Positions 1,993 to 9,695 are shown, numbered from the stretch's first letter. The stretch: DNA of 64,000 nt from an uncultured Oscillospiraceae bacterium (GCA_946546815.1 CAMNOL010000001.1:4998-68997); one strand, 5' to 3'. Notes: generated by a model not told the origin, from the letters alone. Numbers and translations are program-made.

Positions 1993-2197
1993 CAGCAAAA
2001 CTCAGCCAGCGCAGAGATGACTACCATTTGATTCCTTCCATGATTCTCATTGGAATCAATCCTCTGTTTTGCGCTGATGTGATCGGTGTTCCCTGTCATA
2101 CATGAAAATCAGGGAGAACCATAATTTCGAACAATTCCCAGAGATTCTGCTGACGCAAGCAGCAGTCCTCAGCGGTAAAGGAAAGGAGTTCCCATTC

Positions 2198-3094
2198 ATG
2201 GCAAGAAGAAACAGCTTCTCCGGCCTGGGCCGTGGTCTGGGCGCACTGATGGGCGAGGCAGCGCTGGAGCCGGAACAGGAAGGCGTCAGCAAACTTCCCA
2301 TTTCCAAGGTTCAGCCCAACGTTCAGCAGCCGAGAAAGAAGTTTGACCCGGACGCTCTGGCGGATCTGGCCGACTCCATCAAACAGCACGGCATGATCCA
2401 GCCCATCTGCGTCCGGCTGCTGTCCAGCGGCTACTATCAGATCATTTCCGGCGAGCGCCGCTGGAGGGCTGCCAGCCAGGCGGGTCTGGAGGAGGTCCCG
2501 GTGGTCATCATCGAGGCAGACGACCGCAAGGTCATGGAGCTGAGCCTGATCGAAAACCTCCAGCGGGAAGACCTGAACGCTATGGAAGAAGCCCAGGGCT
2601 ATCTGACGCTGATGCAGGAATTCGGCATGACCCAGGAGGCGGTGTCCAAACAGGTGGGAAAGAGCCGCAGCGCGGTGGCCAACGCGGTCCGGCTGCTGTC
2701 CCTGCCCGACGACCTGAAAAGTCTGGTGGAGGAGGACAAGCTCACCGCTGGACACGCCCGCGCCCTGCTCTCTGTGCCAGAGGATGAGTCCCGCCGGGCA
2801 CTGGCGGAAAAGATCATATCCGACGGGCTCTCCGTCCGTCAGGCGGAGGAGCTTGCCAAAAAGCTCTCCGGCAGAGAGTCTCAGCCGGAACCGGAACAGA
2901 AGCCGGCAGCTGACCCGCTGAGCCTGGACTACGCTGCGCTGGCCGCAAAAGAACTGGGCGACTCTCTGGGCCGCAAGGTGAAAATCGTCAGCGGCAAGCG
3001 CAAGGGCCGTCTGGAGCTGGAATACTACGGTGTGGATGACCTGAACGACCTGCTGGATGCGTTAAAGTCCCTTTCGGGCAGAATTTCCGGTTGA
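2198..3094 (+). CDS. spo0J: Chromosome partitioning protein Spo0J/ParB
   Basis: N-terminal GLGRGLGAL peptide, GERRWRA, HTH GKSRSAVANAVRLL, AGHARAL. RBS AAGGAG. Confidence 0.96.
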   Translation: MARRNSFSGLGRGLGALMGEAALEPEQEGVSKLPISKVQPNVQQPRKKFDPDALADLADSIKQHGMIQPICVRLLSSGYYQIISGERRWRAASQAGLEEVPVVIIEADDRKVMELSLIENLQREDLNAMEEAQGYLTLMQEFGMTQEAVSKQVGKSRSAVANAVRLLSLPDDLKSLVEEDKLTAGHARALLSVPEDESRRALAEKIISDGLSVRQAEELAKKLSGRESQPEPEQKPAADPLSLDYAALAAKELGDSLGRKVKIVSGKRKGRLELEYYGVDDLNDLLDALKSLSGRISG

Positions 3095-5430: not shown

Positions 5431-5670
5431 GCTGTGACCCAAAAAACATCCCTCTGGGCGCAGCTTCTTCTGTCTGTCCCCATGCGGAGCAGGATTCTCT
5501 GACAGACCGAATTGGTGCCTCACTCCTTTCTGACTCATTTTTCCCACATTTCTTTCAAAACAGGTGGAAAACTTCCTTCTTATCTGGTAGAATAAAGCGT
5601 GTTCTGTTTGGTATTATTTCAGGTTCTCCACAGGAACCTGTGTGATTTTCTTTTTCCTTTGGAGGCCGCC

Positions 5671-6372
5671 ATGAAAACCATCATCGAATCCGGATTACAG
5701 GCTCTGGGCCGTTCCCCTGCCCCTGCGGGTGCGCTGGCAATCTACGGGGAACTGCTGCTGGAGCAGAATCAGGTCATGAACCTGACCGCCATCACCCAGC
5801 CGGACCAGGTTGCCCGGCTGCATATGCTGGACTGCGCTGCTGTGCTGGGCGCCGCAGATTTCCCTGGAAAAGCGGTGCTGGATGTGGGCACCGGCGCGGG
5901 CTTTCCCGGTCTTGTGCTGAAGCTCTGCGAACCTTCCATCCAGCTGACGCTGCTGGACTCCCTGGCCAAGCGCATTGACTGGCTCAGCCGCATTGCCCCG
6001 GAACTGGGTGCAGAAGAGATTCGCTGCGTCCACGCCCGGGCGGAGGAGCTTTCCTCCCTGCCCGACTGGCGGGAGCAGTTTGACATCGTCACCTCCCGTG
6101 CGGTGGCAGATCTCCGGATTCTGTGTGAGCTGTGCCTGCCCTTTGTAAAAGTGGGCGGTGTCTTTCTGGCTATGAAGGCCGAGGACTCCAACGAAGAAGT
6201 CAACTCTGCCGGTCGTGCCGTCTCAATTCTGGGTGGACGGCTGCTCCCCGCTTTCTCTTACCGCATTCCGGGTACTGACGTCAGCCGCAAGGTAATTCGG
6301 GTGGAGAAAATAAAACCTTCTCCGCAAAAATACCCCCGACGTTTTTCCAAAATGAAAAAAGCGCCCCTTTAA
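5671..6372 (+). CDS. rsmG: 16S rRNA m7G527 methyltransferase
   Basis: MNLTAI, HMLDC, DVGTGAGFPG, VTSRAVA, KYPR. ATG 5671 after GGAGG. Confidence 0.95.
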   Translation: MKTIIESGLQALGRSPAPAGALAIYGELLLEQNQVMNLTAITQPDQVARLHMLDCAAVLGAADFPGKAVLDVGTGAGFPGLVLKLCEPSIQLTLLDSLAKRIDWLSRIAPELGAEEIRCVHARAEELSSLPDWREQFDIVTSRAVADLRILCELCLPFVKVGGVFLAMKAEDSNEEVNSAGRAVSILGGRLLPAFSYRIPGTDVSRKVIRVEKIKPSPQKYPRRFSKMKKAPL

Positions 6373-6491
6373 TGCATTTTATTCTTTTTCAGGTTTGATT
6401 TTTTTTCGGAGAATCCTGTGTTTCATGGGTTTTTATGTCATATTTTTTCACCATTTCCTTTTTCTGATTTTATTTTTCGCACAAAAAACTA

Positions 6492-6520
6492 TTGCTATTT
6501 CATTTTATTCTTGTTAAAAT
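6492..6520 (+). promoter_or_regulatory. SigA-type promoter of minD-mgsA
   Basis: TTGCTA-17 bp-TAAAAT with extended TG. Confidence 0.65.
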
Positions 6521-6541
6521 ATTTGTAATGCGAGGTTGACA

Positions 6542-7279
6542 ATGGGCATTTCAATTGTGATCACCTCCGGTAAGGGCGGCACAGGCAAGACCTCCGTGCT
6601 CTGCGGGGTCGCCTCCTGTCTGGCCGCGATGAACTACCGGGTGCTTTGCCTGGATATGGATATCGGTCTTCGGAATCTGGATATGGTTCTGGGCATGACG
6701 GACCGGGTGCTGATGGATTTTTCCGATGTGATTTACCAGCGCTGCTCCCTGCTGGACGCTGTTGTAGAACACCCGCAAATCAAAAACCTGTATCTGCTCA
6801 CCGCCCCTGTCAGCGCCCGGGCTTCTCATATCGACCGCATCGATGTGATGACGCTGTTGGGACAGATCAAACGGGAATTTGACTTCTGCCTCATTGACAG
6901 CCCGGCAGGAATTGACGCAGGCTTTGAACTGGCCTGTGCCGGTGCGGACCGGGCCATTGTGGTGTCCACGACGGAGCCATCCTCCCTGCGGGACGCCCAG
7001 CAGGCTGTCAACCAGCTTCGCAGCAGACGCATCCCCATCCATCTGGTGGTCAATAAAATGTCCAAAAAGCTGCTGCGGAAGCTGCATACCACCATTGATG
7101 ACGCTATGGATACTGCAGGCCTGCCCCTGCTGGGTATTATTCCCCAGGATGACAAAATTCCGGTGTACAACGGCCTTGGCCAGCCCGTGATTTTAAAAGA
7201 ACGCCGGGGCGCTGCCGTGGCCTACTACAACATCGCCCGGCGGCTTCTGGGACAGCGGGTTCCGCTGCACCGATTCTGA
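6542..7279 (+). CDS. minD: MinD-family ATPase lacking a C-terminal membrane-targeting helix
   Basis: TSGKGGTGKT, DMDIGLRNLD, IDSPAGI; ends LLGQRVPLHRF. Confidence 0.88.
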   Translation: MGISIVITSGKGGTGKTSVLCGVASCLAAMNYRVLCLDMDIGLRNLDMVLGMTDRVLMDFSDVIYQRCSLLDAVVEHPQIKNLYLLTAPVSARASHIDRIDVMTLLGQIKREFDFCLIDSPAGIDAGFELACAGADRAIVVSTTEPSSLRDAQQAVNQLRSRRIPIHLVVNKMSKKLLRKLHTTIDDAMDTAGLPLLGIIPQDDKIPVYNGLGQPVILKERRGAAVAYYNIARRLLGQRVPLHRF

Positions 7280-7324
7280 AAACGAATTCGTTCCTCCCTT
7301 TTTCCCCAGAAAGGAGTTTTTCTC

Positions 7325-7741
7325 ATGAATATTGCATTGTTGTCTGATGAGAGTAAGCAGGAGCTAATGGTACAGTTCTGCATCGCCTACTGCGGGATCC
7401 TTGCTAAGCACACCCTGTGTGCCACCAGCGAAACCGGCAAGGCAATTGCAGAGGCCACCGGCTTGGATGTAAAACTGTTTTTGTCCCACGCTCACGGCGG
7501 CGCCCAGCAGATCGGCGCCCGCATCTCCTACAATGAGCTGGATATGGTTCTGTTTTTCACCGGCCCCAACAACGAGGCGTATCTGGACGATCTGTCCTCC
7601 ATCTGCCACCTGTGCGATGTGAACAACGTCCCCGTTGCCACCAATATTGCCACGGCGGAAATGCTCATCATGGGCCTGAACCGCGGCGACCTGGACTACC
7701 GGGAAATTCTGTACCCCCGCACCAAGCAGGTATTGGTATAA
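7325..7741 (+). CDS. mgsA: Methylglyoxal synthase-like protein, catalytically degenerate
   Basis: Overall MgsA pattern (MNIAL...ELMVQF...EATGL...QQIGA...LCDV...PVATNIATAE), but GGDQQ is GGAQQ, AHD is SDE, RDP is TGP and HEPD is YLDD. Confidence 0.85.
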   Translation: MNIALLSDESKQELMVQFCIAYCGILAKHTLCATSETGKAIAEATGLDVKLFLSHAHGGAQQIGARISYNELDMVLFFTGPNNEAYLDDLSSICHLCDVNNVPVATNIATAEMLIMGLNRGDLDYREILYPRTKQVLV

Positions 7742-7964
7742 GATAGTCCTGGCTCTGTCCTTTTTCTTTGAGGCATCACCGCACAATAAGAACTTCAGCG
7801 CCTTGCGGTTTATTCTCCGCCAGATTGTCCGCAGCTTTCTTGAAATCCGCCAGGATTCCTGCGAAATCTTCGAACAATCTGGACAAAGAATATCCTCGCA
7901 ATTCGCTCTTGTCCCATTATGCGGTGAAGCCTTAATTTTTTCCCGGTATCAAGTTTATTTCGTA

Positions 7965-7993
7965 TTGACTGACTCCCAAAAAGCCGGTATAAT
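7965..7993 (+). promoter_or_regulatory. SigA-type promoter of the T-box/hisS-aspS transcript
   Basis: TTGACT-17 bp-TATAAT. Confidence 0.85.
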
Positions 7994-7999
7994 GTGTTG

Positions 8000-8240
8000 T
8001 TGTACCATGTTGATAGGGAATCAGTACACCGGATACCGCCGGACAGAGAAAGCGGCAGCTGCTGAAAGCCGCTACGGAAACGGCCTGATGGAAGACGTCC
8101 CCGGAGTGGGCCGGGAGACCGGCGCGGTTCCCTTCCCGCGCAGAAGAAGGCCGGAGGGCCTGTATCAGGCCGAATTTGGGTGGCACCACGAAGTGATTTT
8201 TCGCTCTCGTCCCAATGCATTTGGGGCGGGAGTTTTTTTC
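8000..8240 (+). ncRNA. T-box riboswitch, Asp specifier (GAC)
   Basis: Stem I GGGA...AGTA...AGAGA...GCTGAA...GAA GAC G TCCC. T-box AATTTGGGTGGCACCACG at 8173-8190. Terminator CTCTCGTCCCAA...TTGGGGCGGGAG followed by TTTTTTT. Confidence 0.92.
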
Positions 8241-8336: not shown

Positions 8337-9695
8337 ATGGCAAAATTAAAGCCCCGCACCCTGGCCGGGTTCATGGAGCTGCTCCCTGCCCCTCAGCAGC
8401 AGATGGAGCGCATCATGCAGACCCTGCGGGAGACCTATTCCCTGTACGGCTTTACACCGCTGGACACCCCCATTATTGAAGACGCGCAGATTCTTCTGGC
8501 CAAGGGCGGCGGAGAGACTGAGAAGCAGATTTACCGGTTCCAGAAGGGCGACAGCGATCTGGCACTGCGCTTTGACCTGACGGTTCCCCTGGCCAAGTAT
8601 GTGGCCATGAACTATGGTCAGCTGACCTTCCCCTTCCGCCGCTATCAGATCGGCAAGGTCTACCGGGGCGAACGCCCTCAACGGGGCCGCTACCGTGAAT
8701 TCTATCAGGCGGACATCGACATCATCGGCGACGGCAAGCTGGACATCGCCAACGAGGCGGAGATTCCCTCCATCATCTACCAGACCTTCTCCCGTCTGGG
8801 CCTGAAGCGGTTCCAGATCCGGGTGAACAACCGGAAAATCCTCAACGGTTTTTATGAAATTCTGGGCCTCACTGAGCAGAGCCAGGAGGTCATGCGCACC
8901 GTGGACAAGCTGGACAAGATCGGTCCCAAGGCTGTCCGGGACATTCTGGTGGATGACATTGCCGTCGCCCCGGAAACCGCTGATGAAGTGCTGAATTTCA
9001 TCGCCATCAAGGGTACCAACACGGAGGTGCTGTCCGCTCTCGAGTCCTACAAGGGAAAATCCGCAACCTTTGACAAGGGTCTGGAGGAGCTGACCACCGT
9101 CACCCGCTATCTGGCGGCCTTCGGCGTACCGGAGGAGAACTTCGCGGTGGACCTGACCATCGCCCGCGGCTTGGACTACTACACCGGCACCGTCTACGAG
9201 ACCGTGATTTTGGATCACCCGGAGGTGGGCTCCGTCTGCTCCGGCGGCCGGTATGACAACCTGGCGGGCTACTACACCGACAAGCCCCTGCCCGGCGTGG
9301 GTATCTCCATCGGCCTGACCCGCCTGTTCTTTGTGCTGAACGACCAGAAAATGCTCAACGACGCCGTTCCCACCGCCCCCGCCGAGGTGCTGGTGGTGCC
9401 CATGAGCGCCGAGCAGCAGGGCTACGCCATCAGCGTGGCAACTCAGCTCCGCGCCAGCGGCATCCGCACCCAGCTCTACACCGAACAGAAGAAGTTCAAG
9501 GCGAAAATCAACTACGCCGTCAAGCTGGGCATCCCCTATGCCATGTTCCTGGGCGAGACCGAGGAGCAGGAACAGGTAGTGGCCATTAAGGACCTGGGCA
9601 AGGGCGAGCAGGTGACGGTAAAGCTGGAAGATGCCGTGGCCATTGTGAAAGAGTATCTGGAGAAAACGAAAGAAATTCCCAGCATCGTAGAGTAA
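8337..9695 (+). CDS. hisS: Histidine--tRNA ligase
   Basis: LRFDLTVP, YRGERPQRGRYREFYQADID, ARGLDYYTG, GGRYD. Confidence 0.97.
   Translation: MAKLKPRTLAGFMELLPAPQQQMERIMQTLRETYSLYGFTPLDTPIIEDAQILLAKGGGETEKQIYRFQKGDSDLALRFDLTVPLAKYVAMNYGQLTFPFRRYQIGKVYRGERPQRGRYREFYQADIDIIGDGKLDIANEAEIPSIIYQTFSRLGLKRFQIRVNNRKILNGFYEILGLTEQSQEVMRTVDKLDKIGPKAVRDILVDDIAVAPETADEVLNFIAIKGTNTEVLSALESYKGKSATFDKGLEELTTVTRYLAAFGVPEENFAVDLTIARGLDYYTGTVYETVILDHPEVGSVCSGGRYDNLAGYYTDKPLPGVGISIGLTRLFFVLNDQKMLNDAVPTAPAEVLVVPMSAEQQGYAISVATQLRASGIRTQLYTEQKKFKAKINYAVKLGIPYAMFLGETEEQEQVVAIKDLGKGEQVTVKLEDAVAIVKEYLEKTKEIPSIVE

Follow-up and report, generated by a model that had tools for sequence, protein, structure and literature searches.

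The stretch of DNA considered here (the window, 64,000 nucleotides from an uncultured Oscillospiraceae bacterium; GCA_946546815.1, CAMNOL010000001.1:4998-68997) carries at positions 6542-7741 two adjoining genes, one encoding a homologue of the ATPase MinD and the other a homologue of methylglyoxal synthase (MgsA). We write MinD' and MgsA' for these proteins and their like in related genomes. Judged by its residues, MgsA' is a pseudoenzyme of the methylglyoxal synthase (MGS) fold from which the catalytic residues have been lost, while MinD' is classed as a MinD by descent which lacks both the C-terminal helix and the partners MinC and MinE. The recurrence of both oddities in orthologous pairs of dozens of species far exceeds chance, and the minD'-mgsA' module is real, widespread and apparently undescribed; full-text searches found no literature linking MgsA to Min, Mre or RodA. 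The reading we favour, tentatively and with slightly less than even confidence, is that the pair is an operon descended from a cell-shape and division cluster, in which the pseudoenzyme would have been kept for a non-catalytic role that its Min-linked clade already had.

The two proteins of the pair

6542-7279, + strand: minD', 245 aa, with its stop codon (TGA) at 7277-7279
7310-7316, + strand: ribosome-binding site of mgsA' (AAAGGAG), inside the gap between the genes and 8 nt before the ATG
7325-7741, + strand: mgsA', 138 aa, an intact open reading frame

The residues of MgsA' were mapped by a HMMER alignment to Bacillus subtilis MgsA (6F2C), with a constant offset of +11 to Escherichia coli MgsA (1B93), whose numbering is used throughout. 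The alignment has an E-value of 3.7e-29, and the protein is 47% identical to, and equal in length with, its B. subtilis counterpart. The catalytic base is replaced (D71A), as are ten further residues: H19D, D20E, K23Q, T47E, G66H, P67A, M68H, D91G, H98Y and R107H. An earlier reading of this DNA, made from the sequence alone (hereafter the sequence-only reading), had listed seven active-site substitutions; all seven were recovered, and D20E, T47E, P67A and M68H were added. In the phosphoryl-binding set Thr45, Thr48 and Ser65 are retained, while Lys23 has become Gln, Thr47 Glu and Gly66 His. With Asp71, His98, His19 and Asp91 gone, MgsA' is predicted to be incapable of making methylglyoxal.

Profile searches place the protein within the family and at its margin. 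It scores 38 bits against the MGS domain (PF02142) and 105 bits against TIGR00160, below the equivalog cut-off of 146.9. Against NCBIfam NF003559 it scores 104.8 bits, above the cut-off of 84, and by this acceptance public records come to label such proteins 'methylglyoxal synthase', the name which the relatives of MgsA' carry. An AlphaFold2 model has the MGS fold (predicted local distance difference test score, pLDDT, 79.5) and was matched to 6F2C by Foldseek with template modelling (TM) scores of 0.81/0.91 and a root-mean-square deviation of 1.4 A. The stretch of lowest confidence in the model is the former catalytic loop, SHAHGGAQQ.

MinD' passes the MinD equivalog TIGR01968 (224.3 bits, cut-off 212.9) with a match spanning profile positions 4-245 of 261, the C-terminal tail portion being unmatched. 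Its ATPase motifs are intact, namely a deviant Walker A SGKGGTGKTS (Lys11 and Lys16), switch I DMDIGLRNLD, and DSPAG, and the nucleotide motifs are kept across 68 family orthologues. The protein ends at LLGQRVPLHRF, three residues past a conserved P-L, with no amphipathic membrane-targeting helix, much as had been read from the sequence. The tail past P-L measures at most 9 aa in 68/68 family orthologues, as against 13-44 aa in 31/31 MinD proteins of other Clostridia orders, whose tails hold the usual amphipathic helix. The role of this helix in membrane binding by MinD is addressed by Hu and Lutkenhaus (2003) and Szeto et al. (2003), as these are cited in the reference list of PMC6803595. A frameshift or read-through that might restore the tail was ruled out, there being four weakly matching codons after the TGA and the same ending in 68/68 orthologues. 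Among 140 positions at least 90% conserved in MinE-linked MinD, 87 are changed in MinD', including E53, a residue which we take to be required for MinE action. To judge from these changes, the surface of MinD' for contact with MinE and MinC has diverged.

The genome of 1.86 Mb is 93.6% complete. The sequence-only reading had noted that neither minC nor minE lies near the pair, and the absence extends to the genome: MinC yielded no PF03775 match and nothing in tblastn searches with clostridial MinC, and MinE was found neither by profile search nor by tblastn. That reading had also called for a check of the genome for a second, active mgsA or a minD bearing a membrane-targeting sequence. By protein search and tblastn the genome holds no MGS protein other than the CarB domain, and no second or helix-bearing MinD, the other MinD-family matches being Soj and two weak P-loops. 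Spo0A is encoded, as are mreC-mreD-pbp2 (on a short contig), three RodA/FtsW paralogues and DivIVA (85 bits). A direct interaction of clostridial DivIVA with MinD is credited to Valencikova et al. (2018), again by way of the reference list of PMC6803595, and DivIVA is therefore a candidate recruiter of the anchor-less MinD.

Selection on the pair and its closest relatives

Identity to MgsA' across the 120 best-matching protein clusters runs from 64 to 94%. Asp71 occurs in 0/120 and His98 in 0/120 of them; position 71 holds Ser, Cys, Ala, Ile, Gly or Val, and the window's combination of H19D, D20E, K23Q and D91G is common to approximately 40%. A pattern scan with one genome per species found the subfamily motifs, in an intact open reading frame, in more than 593 species. 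Carriers with NCBI names include Flavonifractor, Pseudoflavonifractor, Lawsonibacter, Evtepia, Oscillibacter, Butyricicoccus, Intestinibacillus and Papillibacter.

Both genes are under purifying selection. The median ratio of non-synonymous to synonymous substitution rates (dN/dS, NG86 method) is 0.12 for MgsA' (256 pairs) and 0.16 for MinD' (28 pairs). Mean protein distances across 46 genomes are 0.30 for the histidyl-tRNA synthetase HisRS, 0.37 for MgsA', 0.57 for MinD' and 0.62 for RsmG; MgsA' thus diverges slowly, at roughly the rate of an aminoacyl-tRNA synthetase. The many active-site substitutions, together with the loss of the MinD tail and partners, might be taken to mean that mgsA' is on its way to being lost and that minD' is no more than a truncated remnant. 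Such simple decay is refuted by the dN/dS values, the intact frames in more than 593 species, a conservation of MgsA' resembling that of HisRS and the invariant ATP-binding motifs of MinD', and we give it next to no credence. The sequence-only reading had proposed a retained pseudoenzyme and had named dN/dS against relatives as a check; the value for MgsA' lies far from decay, and the proposal is borne out by the kept fold and the absence of Asp71 and His98 among the closest clusters. Its account of an intact frame with a good ribosome-binding site and a 45-nt gap likewise agrees with the coordinates given above.

Constraint of this kind might also be expected of a new enzyme. In that case an active site would have formed on His66 and His68 (the motif SHxHGG), acting on some other small phosphorylated or carbonyl substrate, and the linkage to Min would be no more than inherited gene order. 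Among the closest clusters, histidine is found at position 66 in 111/120 and at position 68 in 114/120. The pocket residues T45, T48, G69, G70 and Q73 are invariant, and conservation of the sequence is very high. However, residue 71 varies within the family in the manner described, other lineages have lost Asp71 and not gained the histidines, so that there is no common new catalytic set, and the model has its lowest confidence in the loop in question. We regard this alternative as improbable.

Synteny within the family is extensive. In 80 fetched family loci the commonest order was rsmG-minD'-mgsA'-hisS, with minD immediately 5' of mgsA' in 72/80; mreC-mreD-pbp2-minD'-mgsA' occurred at 4/80. 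Protein distances of MinD' and MgsA' are correlated (0.67, or 0.58 when controlling for RsmG and HisS), and more strongly than those of MgsA' with RsmG or HisRS. The partial correlation of minD with rsmG, at 0.57, is near that of minD with mgsA; the signal is unspecific, and co-evolution of the two proteins is weakly supported.

The Min-linked clade and its possible role

The survey of the window's order covered 151 genomes in 30 families, from which 80 loci were fetched. A homologue of MgsA is present in 144/151, with scores grading without a break between 191 and 100 bits, while no MinC (0/151) and no MinE (0/151) scored above the Pfam cut-off. Of the seven genomes without MgsA, five are also without MinD. 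The mgsA genes are of two kinds, one standing alone and the other directly 3' of minD. For the latter, minD adjoins upstream in 62/66 Min-linked loci (30 families), mostly across gaps of less than 100 nt, and mreC-mreD-pbp2-minD-mgsA-hisS is a frequent arrangement. All thirteen active-site residues examined are intact in 16/16 stand-alone copies. Some Min-linked copies have a fully intact site; at the other extreme, Asp71 has given way to E, A, S, V, G, L, I, T or Q, and a wide variety of residues takes the place of His98. Some genomes hold both kinds; most of those with a degenerate copy, the window's included, have just that copy, which rules out the need for a stand-alone back-up once catalysis is lost.

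In some families of the order the MinD tail is short, basic and hydrophobic (e.g. KKRKKLLL, KINRRILLK), as seen at loci L120, L129, L137, L140-L142, L145, L147-L149 and L151. The same loci have a Walker A of the form S[CFL]KGGVGKT in place of SGKGG, and represent a distinct MinD' subtype.

Across the class Clostridia (120 genomes scored, 40 loci fetched) the cluster takes the form mreC-mreD-pbp2-minC-minD-minE-(rodA)-mgsA, with mgsA closing it; the assignments of MinC, MinE and RodA are backed by Pfam. At one locus of another Clostridia order (L184:5404-7068) the genes downstream of mgsA encode an M23 peptidase and an M50 site-2 protease, reminiscent of spoIVFA-spoIVFB, which come after minCD in B. 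subtilis; two ORFs likewise lie downstream at L216 (5534-6915). A tblastn search of the window's genome with the M50 protein gave no match above 40 bits.

A tree of 145 MgsA sequences (trait columns removed, 126 columns retained, 67/141 forks unresolved) gathers the Min-linked proteins into one clade (SH-aLRT 99), outside which the stand-alone proteins form two. The stand-alone copies of the order (L153, L155-L158, L163-L168 and L172-L174) are divided between these two, of which one lies near the B. subtilis type and the other has a long branch and an extended C-terminus. Their patchy co-occurrence beside the Min-linked copy suggests separate acquisition. Within the Min-linked clade the state of Asp71 changed at least 19 times and that of His98 at least 22 times, whereas shuffled labels averaged 48 changes and never gave fewer than 37; given a short tree with many open forks, the count of 19 is approximate. 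As a conservative floor, both states of Asp71 are found within at least 8 families. In the 72 sampled sequences without Asp71, K23 is kept in 96%, T45, T48, G70 and Q73 each in 100%, S65 in 42% and H98 in 17%, percentages which do not measure prevalence, as sampling favoured low-scoring mgsA genes. Lys23 and Gly66 are retained in most other degenerate relatives, unlike in the window's protein. The clade also has a hallmark C-terminus, GLxRGDLDWRxIVNPK, that is not found in stand-alone enzymes. Its RGDLDWR portion was considered as a marker of non-catalytic function and ruled out, being present also in active Min-linked MgsA and in lineages without MinD.

Repeated loss of Asp71 within a highly conserved clade, set against intact stand-alone enzymes, argues for a second function that does not require catalysis, and the phosphate pocket retained in most lineages suggests ligand binding. 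This non-catalytic function appears to be shared by the entire clade linked to Min and the elongasome, rather than specific to the anchor-less MinD, and probably has to do with cell division or elongation.

Under the favoured reading, the minD'-mgsA' operon would descend from the clostridial cluster given above. In the window's order MinC and MinE would have been lost, and in most families the membrane helix of MinD as well. What remains would be an ATP-binding and presumably dimerising ATPase of the MinD type, its old partner surface diverged. MgsA' has kept its fold and lost its catalytic residues, and strong purifying selection would maintain it for a task, independent of catalysis, that is older than this loss. 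We infer that the task is one of regulation or structure in the division or elongation of the cell, carried out with MinD' where that is present and perhaps also with DivIVA or the machinery of PBP2/RodA. Through the conserved phosphate pocket, most relatives may read a phosphorylated metabolite (dihydroxyacetone phosphate, DHAP, or phosphate). In the window's genus the remodelled pocket (K23Q, T47E, G66H, M68H) may instead denote a constitutive partner or a different ligand.

A more specific proposal can be framed, which we put forward as speculative and on balance unlikely. Min-linked MgsA would be an oligomeric (by homology hexameric) module binding phosphate or DHAP and seated on MinD and/or PBP2-RodA, where it would make septum placement or wall growth responsive to the state of glycolysis. 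In the order without MinC and MinE it would serve as the sole partner of the anchor-less MinD, catalysis being dispensable and lost many times independently.

A related possibility is that in this order MgsA' has become the working partner of MinD', replacing MinC as effector or MinE as ATPase regulator, or providing the surface attachment once given by the lost membrane helix, such that the pair would constitute a minimal new Min system. In its favour, minD and mgsA remain adjoining in an order that has neither MinC nor MinE, and in the window's family both genes were relocated together, out of the mre cluster and next to rsmG. The diverged MinE-contact region with its altered E53, the genomes that lack MgsA and MinD together, and the partial distance correlation of 0.58 point the same way. 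On the other hand, MgsA' persists where MinD is gone, lacks the free N-terminal basic peptide of activators of ParA/MinD ATPases, and in other orders occurs in degenerate form with full MinCDE, which indicates that it is not a simple replacement for MinC or MinE. We doubt that this account is correct.

The role might also lie outside division altogether, for instance in titrating a regulator of carbon flux, with adjacency to minD a frozen accident of the operon. The paper behind 6F2C reportedly concerns B. subtilis MgsA in a regulatory complex with Crh, and some genomes have MgsA' and no MinD. Yet adjacency to mre, pbp2, min and rodA genes has been kept class-wide through several rearrangements, and where minD has been lost mgsA' remains beside pbp2. 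We consider such a role rather improbable.

Several observations weigh against the reading we favour. Firstly, the two genes can be separated. At 7/80 family loci the order is mreC-mreD-pbp2-mgsA'-hisS without minD, no MinD was found anywhere in these seven genomes, and MgsA' is kept without MinD at several other loci of the order and class. Conversely, one genome (G065) encodes a MinD' of 168 bits without the helix (L222:1480-2256) and no MgsA homologue; this minD' sits between a phosphofructokinase-like gene and secA, and is the one clear case sampled. Secondly, degenerate MgsA' also lies beside a complete MinCDE in which the MinD helix is normal (e.g. L216). Thirdly, whether MinD has lost its helix shows no association with whether Asp71 is lost (41/27 vs 23/21, from too few independent contrasts for a firm test). 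Taken together, these three points indicate that the two oddities arose separately. To them may be added the approximate count of Asp71 changes, the resemblance of the minD-rsmG and minD-mgsA correlations, the chance that the two conserved histidines of MgsA' mark a new active site, the replacement of Lys23, Thr47 and Gly66 in the window's protein, and the possibility that gene order was inherited in the absence of a functional link.

These points also bear on the roles suggested by the sequence-only reading. Its notion that MgsA' serves this MinD survives insofar as the linkage is old and very widespread, and is undercut by MgsA' in genomes without MinD, by its presence beside full MinCDE and by the missing association between helix and Asp71. 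A direct MinD'-MgsA' partnership is plausible, and is unproven because MgsA' survives in lineages without MinD. Its notion of a metabolite sensor agrees with the phosphate-binding residues retained in most degenerate relatives, and is weakened for the window's own protein by the three replaced residues.

Were the proposed role true, it would introduce a new player in the control of the bacterial division site. The same clade is active in some lineages, dead in many and always within the mre/min cluster, and so offers a natural experiment on moonlighting. In a whole order of abundant gut anaerobes (in NCBI terms Oscillospiraceae, Butyricicoccaceae and ruminococci), MinD occurs with neither MinC nor MinE and mostly lacks the helix, which places the positioning of its septum in question. 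Metabolic models of hundreds of gut species, moreover, probably carry a nonexistent methylglyoxal bypass drawn from the annotation 'methylglyoxal synthase'.

Locus layout and comparison with known systems

The features that surround the pair are as follows, open reading frames being given as called.

1199-1942, + strand: soj
2102-3094, + strand: spo0J
between spo0J and rsmG, + strand: serS, then mscL
5599-6372, + strand: rsmG
6415-6429: weak terminator-like hairpin 3' of rsmG
6492-6520, + strand: promoter-like site TTGCTA-17-TAAAAT with a TG extension, a consensus match only
7768-7941, + strand: long imperfect hairpin followed by U6, 3' of mgsA', by folding (minimum free energy -72.7 kcal/mol)
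7965-7993: near-consensus hisS promoter TTGACT-17-TATAAT, a consensus match
8001-8217, + strand: T-box leader ahead of hisS-aspS, 68 bits, under the Rfam gathering score of 93
8203-8233: T-box terminator in front of hisS-aspS
8337-9695, + strand: hisS (HisRS of 452 aa), followed by aspS

The AT-rich spacer of 169 nt between rsmG and minD' houses the promoter-like site. Translation of minD' would begin at the ATG at 6542, which the ribosome-binding site GAGG precedes by 6 nt; the TTG at 6536 shares this frame. No terminator was found in the 45-nt gap between minD' and mgsA'. The hairpin at 7768-7941 (z-score -5.4, equally stable shuffles 0/200) is probably the terminator of the operon. Given the short gap, the upstream promoter-like site and the downstream hairpin, minD' and mgsA' look like a single transcription unit. 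An RNA family search found no riboswitch or known RNA upstream of minD', and a match to the Moco riboswitch at 7190-7332, across the end of minD' and the gap, is most likely due to chance (22 bits, E 0.029).

The gene 3' of mgsA is hisS in most loci of the order where a downstream gene was seen, and is of two very different types. The window's family has the HisRS of 452 aa. Many other families have a HisRS-like protein of 424 aa with a Cys-rich insert, 24-29% identical (e.g. L097:5465-6745 and L116:5483-6757, the latter followed by aspS).

Compared with the MinD of MinCDE systems (E. coli, Clostridium) or of MinCDJ-DivIVA (B. subtilis), MinD' is alike in its TIGR01968 membership, Walker A lysines and switches I and II, in its ancestral position after mreCD-pbp2 and in the presence of DivIVA in the genome. 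It differs in the missing amphipathic helix, in the absence of MinC and MinE from genome and order, in the 87/140 changed MinE-linked positions and, with G065 as the exception, in being followed by an MgsA homologue. With MgsA proper (EC 4.2.3.3; E. coli 1B93/1EGH, B. subtilis 6F2C), MgsA' shares fold, length, core and C-terminal helix region. It departs from it in the replacement of Asp71, His98, His19 and Asp91 and of the phosphate binders Lys23, Thr47 and Gly66, in a score under the TIGR00160 cut-off, and in the C-terminus of the Min-linked clade.

Metabolic enzymes and their look-alikes are known to regulate division, among them UgtP in B. subtilis, OpgH in E. coli, and KidO and GdhZ in Caulobacter; KidO is oxidoreductase-like and devoid of catalytic residues, and still binds its cofactor. 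The common ground is a metabolic-enzyme fold tied to division and, for KidO, a binding site that outlasts catalysis, as the phosphate-binding pocket does in most degenerate Min-linked MgsA. These regulators act on FtsZ, however, and their genes do not lie beside minD; the likeness to MgsA' is one of analogy and not homology. Orphan ATPases of the ParA/MinD kind (McdA-McdB, MipZ-ParB, FlhG-FlhF, PomZ-PomXY) likewise lack MinC and MinE and have the gene of a small conserved partner adjoining. Partners of the McdB, ParB, FlhF and PomXY type stimulate the ATPase through an N-terminal peptide that is flexible and basic, whereas MgsA' starts at strand beta-1 of a compact fold, and MinD' is, unlike these ATPases, a true MinD by descent and not a separate ParA branch.

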